A stretch of DNA of 64,000 nucleotides, taken from contig JASGJH010000001.1 of the NCBI GenBank assembly GCA_047601445.1, positions 4,256,001 through 4,320,000 of the forward strand. Direction: 5' to 3'. Position numbers: made by a program. The stretch is from Myxococcales bacterium (GTDB lineage: Bacteria; Myxococcota_A; Polyangia; Polyangiales; DASUME01). This document shows positions 36,901-45,900 of this stretch, one piece after another (the first letter of the stretch is position 1; each line of letters begins with the position of its first letter).

Positions 36901-39900
36901 CTTATCAGCGATTTTTTGCCTGTCCGGTCACGCTCGCGGAGCACGACGCTCTGCATTTCGACCGAGCGCTGCTGTCCGCTCCCCTCGTCGCAGCGAACGC
37001 GGACTTGGCGCGATTCAATGAAGGAGCGGCTCGCGAGTATTTGCGGAGCATGTCGGCGCAAACGGTGGTCGACCGGGTGCGCGAGGCGATCATGGAGCGC
37101 CTTCCCAGCGATGTGTCCCCGGAGCTCATCGCACGCAAGCTCGGCATGAGCCTGCGTAGCATGCAGCGCAGCCTGCGCGAGCGGGAGACTAGCTACGAGG
37201 ACGTGCTGCGCGAGCTACGTCTAGAGCTGGCGCAGGCCCATCTGCGCGCCGGACGCTACTCGAACGCCGAGATCGCGTTTCTGCTCGGCTACGAGAGCCC
37301 GAGTGCGTTCTCCCGGGCGTTCCGCCGCTGGACTGGACGCTCGCCGTCTGAGTTTGCTCAACGCCGCCCGCCGCACAGCTGAACGTCGTCGACAGTGCCG
37401 CAGACGAGGCCGTCCGCTTTTCTCTTGGCCGGCGCCTGCTGCGCCCGCGGCCGCCGTCGTTGAGCTCACCGCTAGTGCGTTTGCTCGCGCCGCAAGAACC
37501 GACCAGGGGTCTGGCCTGTCCATCGCTTGAATGCGCGATAGAACGCCGCGTTGCTGGAAAAGCCTAGCGACCGCGCGATTTCCGCGATCGCACGTCCTTC
37601 TCGTAGATATTGCTTGGCTCGATCAACTCGTGCGTTGTCGAGGGCTCGACGATACGAGAACCCTTCGAGGGCCAGGCGTCTTCGTAGCGTTCCGTGGGCC
37701 ACGCCCAGGTGGGTCCCCACGGACGCCAGGCTGGGCGAGGGCGACTGGAGCTTCTCGGCCTGTTCGAGGATCTGGCTTACCAGCAGGCCCGACGCCTTCG
37801 ATGCGCGAGCTTCCCTGCGCAGTCGGCTCGCCGCATGTCCCAGGGTCGCCGAGAGCTCTAGATCGGTGTGGGGCAGCGCGACGTCGAGCATCCCCCGTTC
37901 CAAGGCCAGCGCCTGCTTGCCGGCATAGAACTCCAACGGGCTCTGGAACGTGTCCATGTATTCCGAAGCGTAGCTCGGTGGAGGGTAAGCGAACGACAGC
38001 CGCGTGGGCGCTGCGGGAGCAACCTTGAGGTAGTCCTTGCGAATGCGCTCAACGAACGCGAACGTAAATTCGGTCCAAAAGCGCGTGGCCACGTTCGACT
38101 CCGATTGAACCCGGAGATGGAGCTCAGCACACTCCTCCTCTTCCGCCAACTTGACCGCCAGGCCTGTCGTGAGCAGCGGCACATTCCGCGCGAACGAGAG
38201 GAGTGCGCCGCGAACGCTGGCTGAGACCAGCATCACGTGTGCCACGACGTGCGTGGTGTAGAGCCGCGCGCGCGCACCGAGCCGTAAGCCAAGCCCTCCG
38301 CACCTTGATTGATTGACAAGCACCTCCAGAAACTCGTCGGCCTCCGGTCCGATCAGGTCACGCTCCAGGGCGAGCGGGGATGCGACGACCACGCCGAGTA
38401 TTCGCTGCGTCTCGGCCACAAGTGCCTGTGCGAACGAGCTCGAGACCCTCATATTTGAGCATCCTAAGCCAAGGGCTTGGTAGTGGCACTGACCGACCAC
38501 GGAGACTGTGATTGACAGCGGCGATTACTCGGCGGGTTGCGCGGCACTCCATTCGAGCGCAGTAGCAGCGCGGTCACGAGGGAGTGTCTTGGCGGCAACT
38601 GCGACCACGAGGGAAGTATCGTAGGGTCGCGTCGCTCTCAAAGACTGTCGTGGCGAATGCTCTGTGTTCGCCACGAGCTTCTTCGTTGAGGGCCACTGGA
38701 GATGGACGATGCTGCGTTCACGCCCTATTCGCATTCTTTTGCCCGCGCTGGTGCTTGGTGCCTGCGCCCAAGATCCTTGGACCTATCCGAGCCGCGAGTC
38801 CATGTCCGTGGGCAGCGAGGTTTTTCGAGTGTTCTGCAAGCGAGTGGCCAGCGCAGATCACCCCGAAGATCTTGAAGGCACCCAGTTCAACGCGGCATGT
38901 CTCGGGCAGGAGGAATTGGCGGATCCGTCGCCACACCTGGGCGCGCTGCTCGAGCGCAGGCCCAAGGTGGTGTCCACGGTCGACCGCATCCTCGGAGAGA
39001 GTACCGTCACTCAGCCGAAGTTCGTCAACACGCTCGAAACCGACGAGTTGCGAAACTTTCTGAAGGACATTATTCCCCTTTACGACGCCCCCGAGGAACG
39101 GCTTCCCAAGTCGACGCGCGTGCTGTCGGCCGTGGCCGAGCGCCTGATCGACGGGAAAGACAAGACTGGCCAGAAAGCGCTCACGGCGCTCTCGGAGATC
39201 ACCGGGCGCAGTGGCTACCGAAAGCTCGAACTGGCGTTAGGCCTGGTGCGCCCGCTTCTCGAGTATCCGGAGCTCGACACCTTCGCCGAGAATGGTCTGC
39301 GTGCGATCGCGAGGGGAGGCGTGGCCGAGAAATCGCTCGACGAGATCTCGCTCGGCCTGGCCGCGGAACTCGCTAACTATTCCCCGGATCCACCGGCCCC
39401 GGACTCCACGCTACTGGTGGCGCGTGACCTGCTGCTTTCGCCCATCCTTCAGAATGACCAGCCCGAGCGCGAGCCCATCTTCATCACCCGGCGCGACAAG
39501 CGTGGCGTTGCGCTTCCATTCGGGGCCCCGGAAGAGCTGAGGCTCCCGTTCGCGGACGACGATGGCGATGGCTTGGCCGACGTGGACAAGTTCGGTCGCT
39601 TCGTCACCCATGGTGAGCCCAAGATCATTCCGTCGCCCTACCCGATCGCCAGTGAGTCCAAGGTACAGCGCGACGCCTCGGGACACGCCCTCAACGTTTG
39701 GACCACCAGCACGGAGCTGTCGGAAGGCGACCCGCTCTACTCCTATTTCGACGCGCAACCCACCCTAATCGGCGCCCTGGTACGGGAGACATCGCGGCTT
39801 ACCGTGCCTGCCAAGGAAGGCGACCGAACTTCCTTGGAGAAGCTTGGGCGCGGCCTCCAGGTTCTCTTTGGGCTAAACAGCCCCCGCAAGAGCAAGTACG

Positions 39901-42900: not shown

Positions 42901-45900
42901 CAAGGCGTCGACCGCACTCAGCGCTTGCGACGGCTTTCTCTGCGTCAACCCCGAAGATCCCACGTTCGACGTAACCGCGAGCATCACGATGCGCCGCTTC
43001 GCGAGCGTGATGATCGGCGCCGGCCTGATATACGATATGGGCCCCGTCAGCATAGGAGCTTCGCTCCAACCCCCCTGGAACATGAAGGGCCGGACGGACC
43101 TCGACGTGACCCTGCCGAGCGATCCCGCCTTTTCGCAGGCCAAGATCGAAGGAACCGGGGGGAAGATGGACGTGCCCTTCCCGTGGATCGGACGCGTGGG
43201 CGTCGAAGTGCATCCCAGCGAATCATTTCGTTTCGAGCTCGCCGCCGTGTATGAAGGTTGGTCACGCCAGGACGAAATCACAGTCAAGGCCAACGACATG
43301 TGGATCCGTGACGTGATCGGGATCGGAGACTACCAAGTAGGCTCGATCAAGATCCAGCGCATGATGAGCGACGCCTACAGCTTCCGTGGCGGCTTCGAGT
43401 ACTTCATGGAAGACATGGGACTGACCCTCCGCATGGGAGCGTCCTACGACACCACGGCCATCAAGGACAAGGCCATGTCTCCAATGACGCTGGATGCCAA
43501 CAAGGTCGTCGCGGGCATGGGCGTCACGCTCCATGCGGGATCCGTGCTCGACATCGACGTGCTCTACGGACACGTGTTCATGCCGGATCGACAGATCCGG
43601 AACAGCGAGATCATCCAGCCCACTGCCATTCGGCCGCCACAGTCGGCCGCCGCTCAGTCACACATCGGCAACGGAACCTACACCATGGAGTCCGACTTCG
43701 CCGGGCTTGGTGCAACGTTCCACTTCTGAATCGGCAATGTGCTCGAAGTCAAACTCCGAGGCCCACCGCGAACCGAGCGACTGGCGCCGGGCAACCGCGC
43801 TGCGAAAAGCGCCTACGACTCGAATCCTCGCGAGGAGAAGCGCCGTCTGGCCCAACGATAGGTAGCGGCCGCCACTCGGAGCAGCGGCACCCGGTCGTAC
43901 CAGTTGGGCGTGATGTCGCTGCGCGAGCTGGATTGGGTGCCCAGAGTTGGGTTCGTGGCCAGGGTCAGGGCTTGAGGATGTTGCAAGCGGTAGGTGTAGA
44001 GAGCACCGTCCAAGTGCATGCGACCGCCGCGCGGGTCGCCGGGCGGACGGGACAGCACCTCTTCCAAGAAATGCGCGACCTTCTCGATGTACTCGCCGCG
44101 CACGGCGTAGAAGTGGGCTGAGCCAAGGCCATCGGCATAGGGGCCGATCGGTGAGGGCGGTAGTGGGTCACCGACTTCCCCATAGCCGAGGTACGCGAGA
44201 GCCCAGTCGTCCTGACACAGACGCTCGACAATCTGTGCTTCTCGTTCCACGAACAGCGGCGAGATCGCCAGGTCGTCTTCGATGATCAGCACGCTACGCA
44301 GACCTTCGCGCTGGGCCTGCCGAAGGATCGCGAGATGACTCAAGAAGCAACCGTGCGCGCCCAGGCTCGGAAAGCCGGCGAGCTCGCTGGCCGTGCGAGC
44401 GCGAAAAAACTCGACCTTCGAAGGGTCGACCAGGCCTGCACGCACGAGCTCGGCCTCTACACTGCGTCGTCGATCGGTACGCTCCGGCAGATTGATCACG
44501 AATGCCCGATCGAAGTACTCCAACAGACGCTGTGGACGCGCCGCACGCCTTGCATCGTTGTCCAGGGCGTCCTGCCCGATCAAACCGCTCATGCGTCAAC
44601 CTCCGAAACGAAGCTCGTGAATCGTGTTCGTGCGCACCTTCGACGTCAAATCGTCGCGTCGCGTCTCCAATTCGGCACGCTCGCATTGGAGCACGTCGCA
44701 CGAACGTCTATTCGAGCTTGACCATGCTGCTCCTGGAACGGATGGCCAATTCGTCCGCGCGACGAAGAGCCAAGTCTTCCGGCCTCGTTGCGCCGGGACC
44801 CCGGGTGATGCCGGCGTCTGCACGCACCCTGCTCGTCCGTCGCGACGAGCAGGCGGCGCTCGCGGCACACAATGACCTGGTCTCGCTCGTGCGCGCGAGA
44901 GTGCCTCCCGATGGTCCCGCGACGAGCCGATCTCCGCTTGTTCGAATCAGCCAATGCAGAGCCGTCTTCGAGATTCATGCGGCTCACTGAGGCCACGCCA
45001 ACTCACCTGTGTCAGTGCTGCGAACCGATGCTCTCGAAGACGCACGAGCGCACATGGCGAACGCTCACGCAGCTCGACCCAAGCCGTCGAGATTGCGTGC
45101 CTGGCGCTCCGTGGCGAAGCCTCGCCGGAAGCAGGCCCGAGGTTTGCAAACGGGATGGCGCTCAGTGAGCGCCCACCATGGGCATCGCGGGAGTAACATC
45201 ATGTCTGTTCGAAGTCTGTTCCTGAGTGGAAGGCTGAGTATGGCCGTCGCGTTGATTGCGGTCGGTGCCTGTAGCGACAGCAGCTCGGGCACAACGAGCG
45301 CGATCTCGAACGCCTATGGAGATGGCGACGGCGATGGAACGAGCGGGGGCTCCAACTCCGCCACCTACACCCCCACCGCGTTGGTCGGCGATACCAGCGG
45401 ATCAGCCCCGGTCGTCGATCCGAATCTGATCAATCCCTGGGGAATTGCCTATGGTCCTGACACCGCGTTCTGGGTCGCCGACAACGGTACCGGGAAGTCG
45501 ACCGTGTACGATGGCAAGGGCGCTCCACAGCCGGCCAACGCACCGCTGATCGTGGGCATGCCGCTGCCCGCAGGCTCAGCCGATAAGGCCGCAAAGCCCA
45601 CGGGCATCGCGTACTACGGTGGCAAGGCGTTCAAGGTGAGTGCAAGCGGTGAGAGCGCGAGCGCAAGGTTCCTGTTCGCGACCGAACAGGGCACCATCCT
45701 GGGCTGGACGTCGGACCTGACGCCCGACGAGGCGATTCTGGCGGTCGACGCGTCCGGCGACGATGCGATCTTCAAGGGGCTCACGCTGGTGCCACACGAC
45801 AAATCGGAGTGGCTCGCGGTCACGGACTTTCACAATGGCGTGATCAGGGTCTACGACGACAAGTTCAAGCCGGTCACCCTGGCGAAGGGCGCCTTCGTGG

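Follow-up and report, generated by a model that had tools for sequence, protein, structure and literature searches.

The window, a 64,000-nucleotide stretch from a soil myxobacterium of the Polyangiales (genome of 9.5 Mb, one contig, 98.7% complete), holds a gene for a predicted giant lipoprotein followed on the same strand by a gene for a FadL-family barrel, with two AraC-type regulator genes upstream. The features of the locus are as follows:

35181-36275: fatty-acid desaturase gene, upstream of the second AraC-type regulator gene
36366-37382 (+): second AraC-type regulator (PF12625 and HTH_18)
37472-38500 (-): divergent AraC-type regulator (PF12625, 5.6e-21; PF12833, 2.9e-17)
38501-38708: intergenic region between the divergent AraC and giant genes, holding an inverted repeat
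38709-42308 (+): giant lipoprotein of 1,199 aa with predicted signal peptide and lipobox; new family
42314-43729 (+): FadL/Toluene_X-family outer-membrane barrel of 471 aa (Toluene_X match), with 14 strands according to its AF2 model

The longest form of the giant reading frame spans 38664-42308 (+) from a GTG at 38664; the likely start is the ATG at 38709, with a GGAG 8 nt 5′ of it, giving MLRSRPIRILLPALVLGAC. The giant stop and the FadL start are separated by a gap of 5 nt. An inverted repeat with a 13-bp stem was found at 38648-38676, just 5′ of the giant start, and no sigma-70-like promoter was matched in the AraC/giant intergenic region (0 matches; shuffled sequences average 0.9).

The giant lipoprotein and the barrel

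The N-terminus of the giant consists of a predicted signal peptide (MLRSRPIRILLPALVLGA) and the lipobox LVLGA-C19, and the protein is accordingly predicted to be a lipoprotein. A lipobox was present in all five giant paralogues of the genome, AVAC, AAGC and ASGC being found besides the LGAC of the window copy. When the giant was searched against Pfam and NCBIfam, 0 families were matched at E≤1, in agreement with the preliminary description, which had reported a lipoprotein of about 1,200 residues with no detectable domain. Of 34 further family members, 33 were without a Pfam match at E≤0.1, and the remaining one matched EAD2 below threshold, at E 0.051 and with 14.3 of the 23.8 bits required. 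The family was also found to be much larger than the 31 proteins at E≤1e-10 first counted; an exhaustive HMMER search returned 569 cluster representatives at E≤1e-3, of which 411 remained at E≤1e-10 and 235 at E≤1e-30, while a word-indexed search returned 21. The giant represents a new protein family without a Pfam or NCBIfam domain.

In an alignment of 61 giant sequences, C19 was nearly invariant (at least 90% conserved), C43, C64, S580, R699, E831, W986 and R1146 were invariant, and C597/C634 as well as an acidic DxDxDG-like motif (D283/D287/D291) were nearly so. The AF2 model of the giant was of high confidence (pLDDT 89.6, pTM 0.87) and mostly helical. The whole 1,199-residue model gave no Foldseek match in the PDB at E≤1e-3 (best E 3.2); a wide VIA comparison reached at best Z 6.1 over 67 residues, in helical hairpins only, and in a second look Z≥2 was reached in 0 of 27 chains. 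No binding site, catalytic motif or substrate could be identified from Pfam, NCBIfam or the whole-model comparison with the PDB.

The partner belongs to the FadL family. Its 471 residues matched positions 5-393 of the 421-position Toluene_X profile (PF03349) at E 1.6e-22 and with 80.1 bits, the cut-off being 29.7, following a predicted signal peptide that ends at VQA|SG, and the N-terminal hatch carries the NPA motif N69-P70-A71. The AF2 model (pLDDT 89.2, pTM 0.84) was matched by Foldseek to 3dwo (E 5.6e-22, TMq 0.70) and to E. coli FadL, 1t16 (E 1.3e-20, TMq 0.70), and these canonical fatty-acid FadLs ranked ahead of TodX (TMq 0.59) and the BamG chains (TMq 0.47-0.52). Sequence similarity to solved members was very low, with a profile E of about 0.07 and 13-15% identity. 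The hatch was the most conserved region of the barrel; R52-G59 and N69-G72 were invariant in 44/44 FadL sequences, giving the hatch motif RGGAFVAG...NPAG. The NPA motif has a role in FadL; that of the barrel aligns with the NPA of TodX, and the Foldseek matches include PDB entries of NPA mutants. By its profile score, structural matches and hatch, the barrel looks like a real FadL transporter and not just an anchor. Strand 3, whose kink gives a lateral opening in FadL proteins, appeared, in the model only, to have a break at residues 137-141, where the nearly invariant P138 lies. The barrel was also compared with two partner-binding families of NCBIfam and assigned to neither, scoring 24.4 bits against a cut-off of 250 for BamG (NF053685) and 13.9 bits against a cut-off of 90 for PorV/PorQ (NF033709).

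Complex prediction was carried out with residues 20-585 of the giant and residues 38-471 of the barrel. The score was 0.37 (runs 0.37, 0.18 and 0.47), and the best of three controls gave 0.00. Of 157 solved complexes, 116 reached the mark that this pair passes, as did 2 of 215 mismatched pairs; at a score of 0.60 or under, however, only 18 of the 157 solved complexes reached it, and both passing mismatches fell in that range. At least 59% of contacts were shared between the runs, the partner was modelled with a pLDDT of at least 82, and the partial giant was poorly folded (pLDDT 56-67). The loop motifs of the barrel also occur in two orphan FadLs of its subfamily, and therefore no partner-specific surface was identified. 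The prediction lends weak support to a physical contact between giant and barrel.

Conservation and copies of the gene pair

Among 80 related FadL loci from public Polyangiales, Sandaracinaceae, Polyangiaceae and Labilithrix genomes, 79 had a giant homologue alongside, and the sole miss had just 161 nt of upstream DNA present; in 74 of the 80 the giant gene shares the strand of the FadL gene, with no more than 239 nt between its end and the FadL. In this near-constant adjacency the subfamily differs from the canonical FadL/TodX/TbuX channels, with which it has the Pfam family, fold, hatch and NPA motif in common. Starting from the giants, the FadL gene lay directly downstream in 28 of the 30 best loci (one being the window's own). 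Twenty loci from other classes of the phylum comprised 13 with giant then FadL, three with FadL then giant on the same strand, one convergent, two without a FadL within 3 kb and one cut by a contig end, so that a FadL neighbour was present in 17 of 19 assessable cases. The adjacency is kept down to about 23% giant identity and survives a swap of gene order, and it is far beyond chance.

We then compared the trees of the two genes. Patristic distances correlated with r = 0.927 across 45 pairs, the maximum in 1,000 permutations being 0.207, although such co-divergence is partly expected of any linked gene pair. The nearest neighbours in both trees were identical sets for the local pairs A, B and C, and three of four were shared for D. 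Together with the conserved adjacency, this supports the giant and the FadL gene as a dedicated pair across the phylum.

The preliminary description had spoken of a module repeated four times in this genome. Four giant-FadL pairs are indeed present, the other three at genome positions 7282494-7287553 (+), 8618246-8623326 (-) and 1415285-1420557 (-), all with the giant first and the abutting FadL gene on the same strand (junctions of +5 nt in the window copy and of -4, -1 and -1 nt, hence overlapping, in the others). Identities among them were 32-65% for the giant, which together with the lipoboxes reproduces the earlier values, and 43-84% for FadL. The giants, however, number five, the fifth being a paralogue of 1,520 aa (9137636-9142198) that is divergent in sequence and has no FadL neighbour.

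The AraC gene had been counted as part of the module as well. A divergent PF12625-type AraC gene adjoins loci A, B and D, with none at C, which bears out the claim for three of the four local pairs; among the 80 related FadL loci, however, an AraC gene lay near the pair in only five. The conserved unit is therefore the giant-FadL pair, and the AraC gene stands outside the conserved module, its link to the pair being lineage-specific. Within the window, the divergent AraC (37472-38500) is likely to be the local regulator of the pair. The second AraC (36366-37382), also listed with the pair at first, shares just 27-29% identity with the three divergent AraCs, has its closest paralogues (49-51%) elsewhere in the genome and adjoins the desaturase gene, to which it is more probably tied than to the giant-FadL pair.

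GlmU-like genes flanked the pair in 14 and SLT-LysM genes in 16 of the 80 related loci, both being cell-envelope genes, and in that setting the pair would fit a housekeeping role in the envelope better than nutrient-specific uptake. The loci flanked in this way are titled mainly Polyangiaceae, Polyangiales or Myxococcales.

Comparison with known barrel-lipoprotein systems

To our knowledge, the FadL-type channels solved so far are described as functioning on their own. The earlier statement that FadL channels are thought to work alone nevertheless went too far, since lipoprotein/FadL-type pairings are known from VolA-FadL (PMC3656444) and BamG-BamH (PMC12611786); new here is the giant protein family at the core. 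In Vibrio, the gene of VolA, a surface lipoprotein with lysophospholipase activity, is transcribed together with a fadL homologue. As in the window, an outer-membrane lipoprotein and a fadL homologue lie a few bases apart in one operon (vca0863/vca0862 in Vibrio cholerae), and a coupling of surface lipid handling to FadL transport was proposed (PMC3656444). Unlike the giant, which has no lipase or other Pfam domain, VolA is an annotated lipase and acts as a lysophospholipase; moreover, fadL comes first in Vibrio whereas the giant comes first in most loci here, and the phyla are different. The giant was considered as a VolA-type lipase and rejected, no lipase or alpha/beta-hydrolase domain being found in the Pfam searches.

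BamG of the Bacteroidota BAM complex is likewise a FadL-family 14-strand barrel paired with a lipoprotein, and the surface lipoprotein BamH is bound by its lipidated N-terminus to the extracellular strands of BamG and to a groove on its surface (PMC12611786). However, the N-tail of BamG threads through the lateral opening, whereas the window barrel carries NPA in a hatch of the canonical kind and is the closer match to FadL; BamH is elongated and two-domained, whereas the giant has 1,200 residues and is helical in its model. SusC-SusD, the analogy drawn in the preliminary description, resembles the present arrangement in its side-by-side barrel and lipoprotein genes, multiplied in the genome with local regulators. 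The window barrel, however, belongs to FadL and not to the TonB-dependent transporters, and the giant matches neither SusD nor any other Pfam model; it was not assigned to the SusD-like lid lipoproteins.

Possible roles of the pair

We propose, with a probability of roughly 0.45, that the giant lipoprotein and its FadL partner belong together as a dedicated outer-membrane device of two proteins, acting on hydrophobic molecules and most likely in their uptake. The barrel would be a FadL-type channel whose hatch gates the lumen and whose lateral exit leads into the membrane; the giant, tethered next to it through its N-terminal lipid, would bind the barrel and capture, extract or hand over a poorly soluble, lipid-like cargo, which the channel would then pass. 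We infer the physical contact, direction, cargo and the membrane side of the giant, uptake being the most likely direction. The module has been multiplied in this genome as four pairs and one orphan giant. Three copies stand under their own divergent AraC and are therefore read as inducible systems with different specificities.

A two-component uptake device had been suggested in the preliminary description, and it is partly supported: the computation directly shows the gene pair, how well it is conserved, how its two genes diverge together, the FadL-typical traits of the barrel and the newness of the giant family, and the complex score passes weakly; the AraC gene drops out as a conserved part. 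The divergent ligand-binding AraCs beside three of four local pairs, when the 9.5-Mb genome holds only about 40 such paralogues, weigh for the device, as does the VolA precedent, while the weak complex score, the absence of a recognisable binding site or catalytic motif in the giant, the loop motifs shared with orphan FadLs, the lineage-specific AraC link, the envelope-gene flanks and the apparent lack of LPS weigh against it. Classically, a FadL is needed to get past the LPS layer, and this need is less obvious because the organism appears to be LPS-less.

A rather unlikely alternative is that the barrel mainly holds its cognate giant at the cell surface, perhaps helping its export, and transports little or nothing, the activity (adhesion, enzyme or envelope biogenesis) residing in the giant. 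PorV and PorQ hold partner proteins in Bacteroidota. One-to-one pairing and co-divergence would suit such a structural partnership equally well, the envelope flanks in 14-16 of 80 related loci fit it, and the binding of lipidated BamH by BamG, as outlined in PMC12611786, offers a model. LptD, which a recent preprint (10.64898/2026.10.03.756453) reports to be the exporter of surface lipoproteins in Bacteroidota, was undetected in the genome. On the other hand, the barrel is structurally nearer to the transporting FadLs (TMq 0.70) than to BamG (0.47-0.52), it falls under the BamG and PorV cut-offs, and its most conserved part is the hatch with NPA, which a pure anchor would not need.

A very unlikely reading reverses the direction, the pair delivering an outer-membrane lipid or another hydrophobic product from the periplasmic side to the outer leaflet via the FadL lateral gate, as a stand-in for LptD-LptE in LPS-less myxobacteria. 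LpxC, LpxB, KdtA (Glycos_transf_N) and LptD gave no match in the nearly complete single-contig genome, and Sorangium has been reported to lack LPS (Keck et al. 2011, as cited in PMC12971839). Across 401 genomes of the phylum, LpxC was absent in 71 of 93 giant-positive versus 137 of 308 giant-negative genomes, and the pair was nearly universal in some families (33/34 in f21, 21/29 in f2). This link is loose and confounded by kinship: LpxC is present in 22 giant-positive genomes, and in family f24, where 0 of 29 genomes have the giant, just one of 29 carries LpxC. A system with four copies, of which three are apparently under AraC control, is moreover unlike a housekeeping exporter, and we know of no FadL-family exporter. 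Many genomes of Polyangia and related Myxococcota classes show no LpxC.

In its boldest form, which we regard as quite unlikely, the proposed device would be an unseen outer-membrane machine of Polyangia and related Myxococcota classes, a 130-kDa lipoprotein of new fold sitting on a FadL lateral gate and moving lipids between the outside or the periplasm and the outer leaflet. If true, the pair would serve either to extract lipids where substrates are insoluble or as the missing pathway of outer-leaflet building or maintenance in LPS-less diderms.

Mere co-regulation, in which the two proteins are made together but act apart, as might a channel and a lipoprotein enzyme or binding protein that serve one pathway without binding stably to each other, had been raised at the outset; it fits the weak complex prediction and the VolA case, where coupling through released fatty acid was proposed and no complex is reported in the available text of PMC3656444, but it is most improbable, since adjacency is kept over wide divergence and through the gene-order swap, pairs within one genome do not swap partners, and in each of the four local copies the FadL start codon abuts or overlaps the giant stop codon.

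The window locus and its copies in the genome

The window locus consists of three ORFs, and these agree exactly with the coordinates in the preliminary description:

37472-38500, minus strand, AraC-type regulator (PF12625 ligand-binding domain, 5.6e-21; HTH_18, 2.9e-17)
38664-42308, plus strand, ORF of the giant lipoprotein (likely start ATG at 38709, with GGAG ahead of it)
42314-43729, plus strand, FadL/Toluene_X barrel with a signal peptide (80.1 bits against a cut-off of 29.7)

Read from the ATG at 38709, the giant begins with a signal peptide and lipobox (MLRSRPIRILLPALVLGA-C), and the FadL gene starts 5 nt past its stop codon. 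No family of Pfam or NCBIfam was matched by the giant even at E<=1, which bears out its description as a protein without a detectable domain.

The genome, a single contig of 9.5 Mb that is 98.7% complete, was searched for further copies. Five giant paralogues were found, and a FadL gene lies next on the same strand in four of them, with giant-FadL junctions of +5, -4, -1 and -1 nt. The module had been described as four-fold; this is correct for the giant-FadL pairs (A, the window copy, to D), but the giants number five rather than four. The other three paired giants are 65, 50 and 32% identical to the window copy, and their FadL partners, in the same order, 84, 64 and 43.5%. The unpaired genes of the two families, and a further gene found at pair C, are located in the genome as follows:

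C1:9137636-9142198 (locus L122), outside the window, fifth giant paralogue, 1,520 aa, lipobox LSAC followed by Lys
C1:6995618-6997105 (L123), orphan FadL gene of the same subfamily, no giant alongside
C1:8837919-8839826 (L124), second such orphan FadL gene, no giant alongside
C1:8623363-8624988 (L120:12363-13988), minus strand, 541-aa secreted protein with no Pfam family, upstream of pair C on the same strand

The fifth giant can be aligned with the others only over its first ~500 and last ~330 residues; it has no FadL neighbour and is flanked by genes for a transaldolase and a Ser/Thr kinase. The first orphan FadL is 38% identical to the window FadL and has genes for a Cupin_6-type AraC regulator and an alcohol dehydrogenase in its vicinity, and the second is 32% identical and carries a Pro/Ala-rich C-terminal tail of ~150 residues. 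A divergent PF12625-type AraC gene adjoins pairs A, B and D; pair C has none, and the 541-aa secreted protein stands in its place. A related MAG (L040) encodes an 85%-identical orthologue of this protein at the corresponding position, and the protein is a possible third component of the pair C subtype.

Conservation of the giant-FadL pairing

Scanning from the FadL side with one genome per species gave 221 relatives, of which the best 80 loci were examined; the titles of related loci name Polyangiales, Sandaracinaceae, Polyangiaceae and Labilithrix. A giant homologue adjoins FadL in 79 of these 80, and in 74 its best match ends within 239 nt upstream of FadL on the same strand; the giant is on the opposite strand in one locus (L100), and four (L051, L072, L084, L118) have larger gaps or partial giant matches. 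The sole locus with no giant match (L109) offers just 161 nt of upstream DNA. From the giant side, 401 sampled genomes of the phylum were surveyed at E<=1e-10, and the giant was present in 93, including 33/34 genomes of family f21 and 21/29 of family f2. FadL is directly downstream in 28 of the best 30 giant loci, the window locus being one of the 30, and no FadL was seen inside the 1.5-kb flank of the giant in L023 and L028. Gene order was also checked at 20 further giant loci picked from other classes of the phylum: 13 have the giant followed by FadL, three have FadL followed by the giant on the same strand, one is convergent, one is cut by a contig end, and in two FadL is absent within 3 kb of the giant. 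That adjacency was kept through swapped gene order argues for function rather than inertia. In this Myxococcota subfamily, a FadL gene is almost never found without an adjoining gene for a 1,200-residue lipoprotein.

Paired trees were built from 45 pairs, namely the 41 of the 80 loci in which a crude gene caller found both genes whole and the four local pairs. Patristic distances in the giant and FadL trees were correlated at r = 0.927, against a maximum of 0.207 in 1,000 permutations, and the nearest neighbours in the two trees were the same sets for pairs A, B and C, with three of four in common for D. The mirrored trees show co-inheritance without partner swapping; they are not evidence of contact, because linked genes share a history. 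The preliminary observation is borne out and widened, and its interpretation holds in part.

Apparent giant-FadL fusions in L072 and L054 were rejected, the ORFs being out-of-frame read-through of GC-rich DNA, and no fusion-length protein occurs among the best 150 of 569 giant-family matches (longest 1,490 aa). In L072, a public MAG contig, the giant frame shifts near its 3′ end, at about 5331-5950, giving an apparent fusion ORF of 1,791 aa; either an assembly error or a pseudogene probably accounts for this.

The two proteins and their possible function

An exhaustive HMMER search with the giant over 1.84 billion cluster representatives returned 569 matches at E<=1e-3, 411 at E<=1e-10 and 235 at E<=1e-30, most of them 1,050-1,350 aa long and aligned end to end. 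A word-indexed search reached just 21 homologues, which accounts for the small earlier figure of 31 proteins. Pfam gave no family in 33 of 34 further members and a sub-threshold EAD2 match (E 0.051) in one. No description of the pair or of the giant's family was found in the literature covered, most subscription journals lying outside it; on that coverage the family is an undescribed one, which counts its cluster representatives in the hundreds and lacks a Pfam model.

In an alignment of 61 giant sequences, the lipobox Cys is conserved, as are two Cys pairs, 43/64 (invariant) and 597/634 (nearly so), and invariant S580, R699, E831, W986 and R1146 are scattered along the protein; no catalytic motif was recognised in this alignment. 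It also contains an acidic DxDxDG-like motif (D283, D287, D291), which we read as a putative calcium site. The AlphaFold2 model built with these 61 sequences (pLDDT 89.6, pTM 0.87) indicates a single compact, mostly helical body. No PDB match was obtained for the whole model, either with Foldseek (best E 3.2) or with VIA-align against 48,161 chains (best Z 6.1 over 67 residues, helical hairpins only), and a second-look VIA alignment of the whole model reached Z>=2 in 0 of 27 chains. The best E value of a PDB sequence-profile search was 0.11, and an ESM Atlas search gave no usable match. At the level of the whole model, the structure of the giant is predicted with confidence but resembles no solved one; a known fold may lie within it.

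The barrel was modelled by AlphaFold2 with a pLDDT of 89.2, and its best matches are the transporting FadLs: 3dwo came first in Foldseek (E 5.6e-22, TMq 0.70), E. coli FadL 1t16 also reached a TMq of 0.70, TodX, TbuX and CymD followed at 0.55-0.62, and BamG chains came lower at 0.47-0.52. Conservation is highest in the N-terminal hatch, where R52-G59 and N69-P70-A71-G72 are invariant in 44/44 sequences and the NPA motif aligns to that of TodX. It is lowest in the periplasmic turns, each just 2-6 residues long, and invariant residues are present in several extracellular loops; short variable turns together with invariant loop residues weakly favour a partner on the outer face. No loop motifs peculiar to giant-partnered FadLs were found: those of the partnered copies recur in both orphan FadLs of this genome.

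Hydrophobic molecules generally cross Gram-negative outer membranes through FadL channels, the classic members of which were investigated as lone proteins. The premise that FadL works alone is nevertheless too strong in view of two precedents. VolA of Vibrio cholerae, a surface lipoprotein with lysophospholipase activity, shares its transcript with a fadL homologue, and coupling of fatty-acid release to uptake was proposed (PMC3656444); BamG, a FadL-family barrel of Bacteroidota, serves as the anchor of a surface lipoprotein, BamH (PMC12611786). In contrast to both, the giant belongs to an undescribed family without a lipase or other domain, is larger than its barrel (1,199 versus 471 aa), and is paired with it near-obligately across a phylum. 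A barrel with a dedicated lipoprotein and a lipoprotein-fadL operon are thus already known; what is new is the protein family of the giant.

Contact was assessed by complex prediction using giant residues 20-585 and FadL residues 38-471, each with its own alignment. The score was 0.37 (runs 0.37, 0.18 and 0.47), and the best of three controls scored 0.00. The pass mark was reached by 116/157 solved complexes and 2/215 mismatched pairs, and passes at scores <=0.60 comprise just 18 of the 157 solved complexes and both passing mismatches. Contact agreement between runs was at least 59% and partner pLDDT at least 82, with the shortened giant itself poorly folded (pLDDT 56-67), and the output specified no interface. 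The prediction with the shortened giant gives weak support to contact.

Our preferred reading, at a probability of about 45%, is a two-part outer-membrane device in which a FadL channel, presumably functional, and the giant would handle hydrophobic cargo. The barrel would contribute a gated lumen with a lateral exit, the giant, lipid-tethered beside it, would handle the cargo, uptake would be the likelier direction, and the local copies could be induced through their AraC regulators. By analogy with BamG and BamH, the barrel might instead chiefly anchor or export the giant; we consider this rather unlikely, the barrel scoring 24.4 bits against NCBIfam BamG (cut-off 250) and 13.9 bits against PorV (cut-off 90).

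Less probable still is outward lipid insertion, in which the pair would substitute for Lpt in LPS-less myxobacteria. The single contig has no match to LpxC (PF03331), LpxB (PF02684), KdtA (Glycos_transf_N, PF04413) or LptD (PF04453), the last model being the weakest of the four (positive in just 2/14 control genomes), and from these profiles the organism probably lacks LPS. Sorangium cellulosum So ce56 is said, in 2011 work by Keck and co-workers, to lack LPS. LpxC occurs in 193/401 genomes of the phylum sample and is missing in 71/93 giant-positive versus 137/308 giant-negative ones. However, it is present in 22 of the 93 giant-positive genomes, so that a strict tie of the giant to LPS loss was rejected, and family f24 has the giant in 0/29 genomes and LpxC in just 1/29; the association is a loose one, with kinship as a confounder. 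That the two genes are co-regulated and their proteins make no contact is in our estimate the least likely reading. Should giant and FadL form a complex (~180 kDa), the outer membrane would have a lipid- or hydrocarbon-handling assembly of new architecture, in biotechnologically interesting organisms seemingly without LPS.

Regulators and flanking genes

Of the 80 related loci, just 5, for the most part orthologues of pair D, have an AraC gene close to the pair. Identity among the three divergent AraCs of this genome is 30-34%, which does not exceed their identity to other paralogues (~40 in the genome). The regulator, which the preliminary description had counted as part of the module, is on these grounds better seen as a lineage-specific regulatory addition than as a third component, and co-duplication with the pair is not claimed. 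Flanks outside the pair have no general conservation across the 80 loci; subsets carry a GlmU-like gene (14/80) or an SLT-LysM transglycosylase gene (16/80), and these loci come chiefly under the titles Polyangiaceae, Polyangiales or Myxococcales. Genes around the module in the window are:

33888-34931, minus strand, VWA-domain lipoprotein
35181-36275, upstream of the module, fatty-acid desaturase-family gene (PF00487, 8.9e-17)
36366-37382, upstream of the module, second AraC gene, PF12625-type
43813-44592, minus strand, GT25 glycosyltransferase
47311-48942, minus strand, caspase-domain (Peptidase_C14) protein

No connection to the pair was seen for the VWA-domain, GT25 and Peptidase_C14 genes. 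The desaturase gene and the AraC gene after it (35181-37382) resemble a separate regulator-enzyme pair adjoining the module. Between the divergent AraC and giant genes, at 38648-38676 and ~30 nt before the giant start codon, there is an inverted repeat whose stem measures 13 bp (TCGTGGCGAATG...TTCGCCACGA); an operator or a leader structure is a possible role for it.
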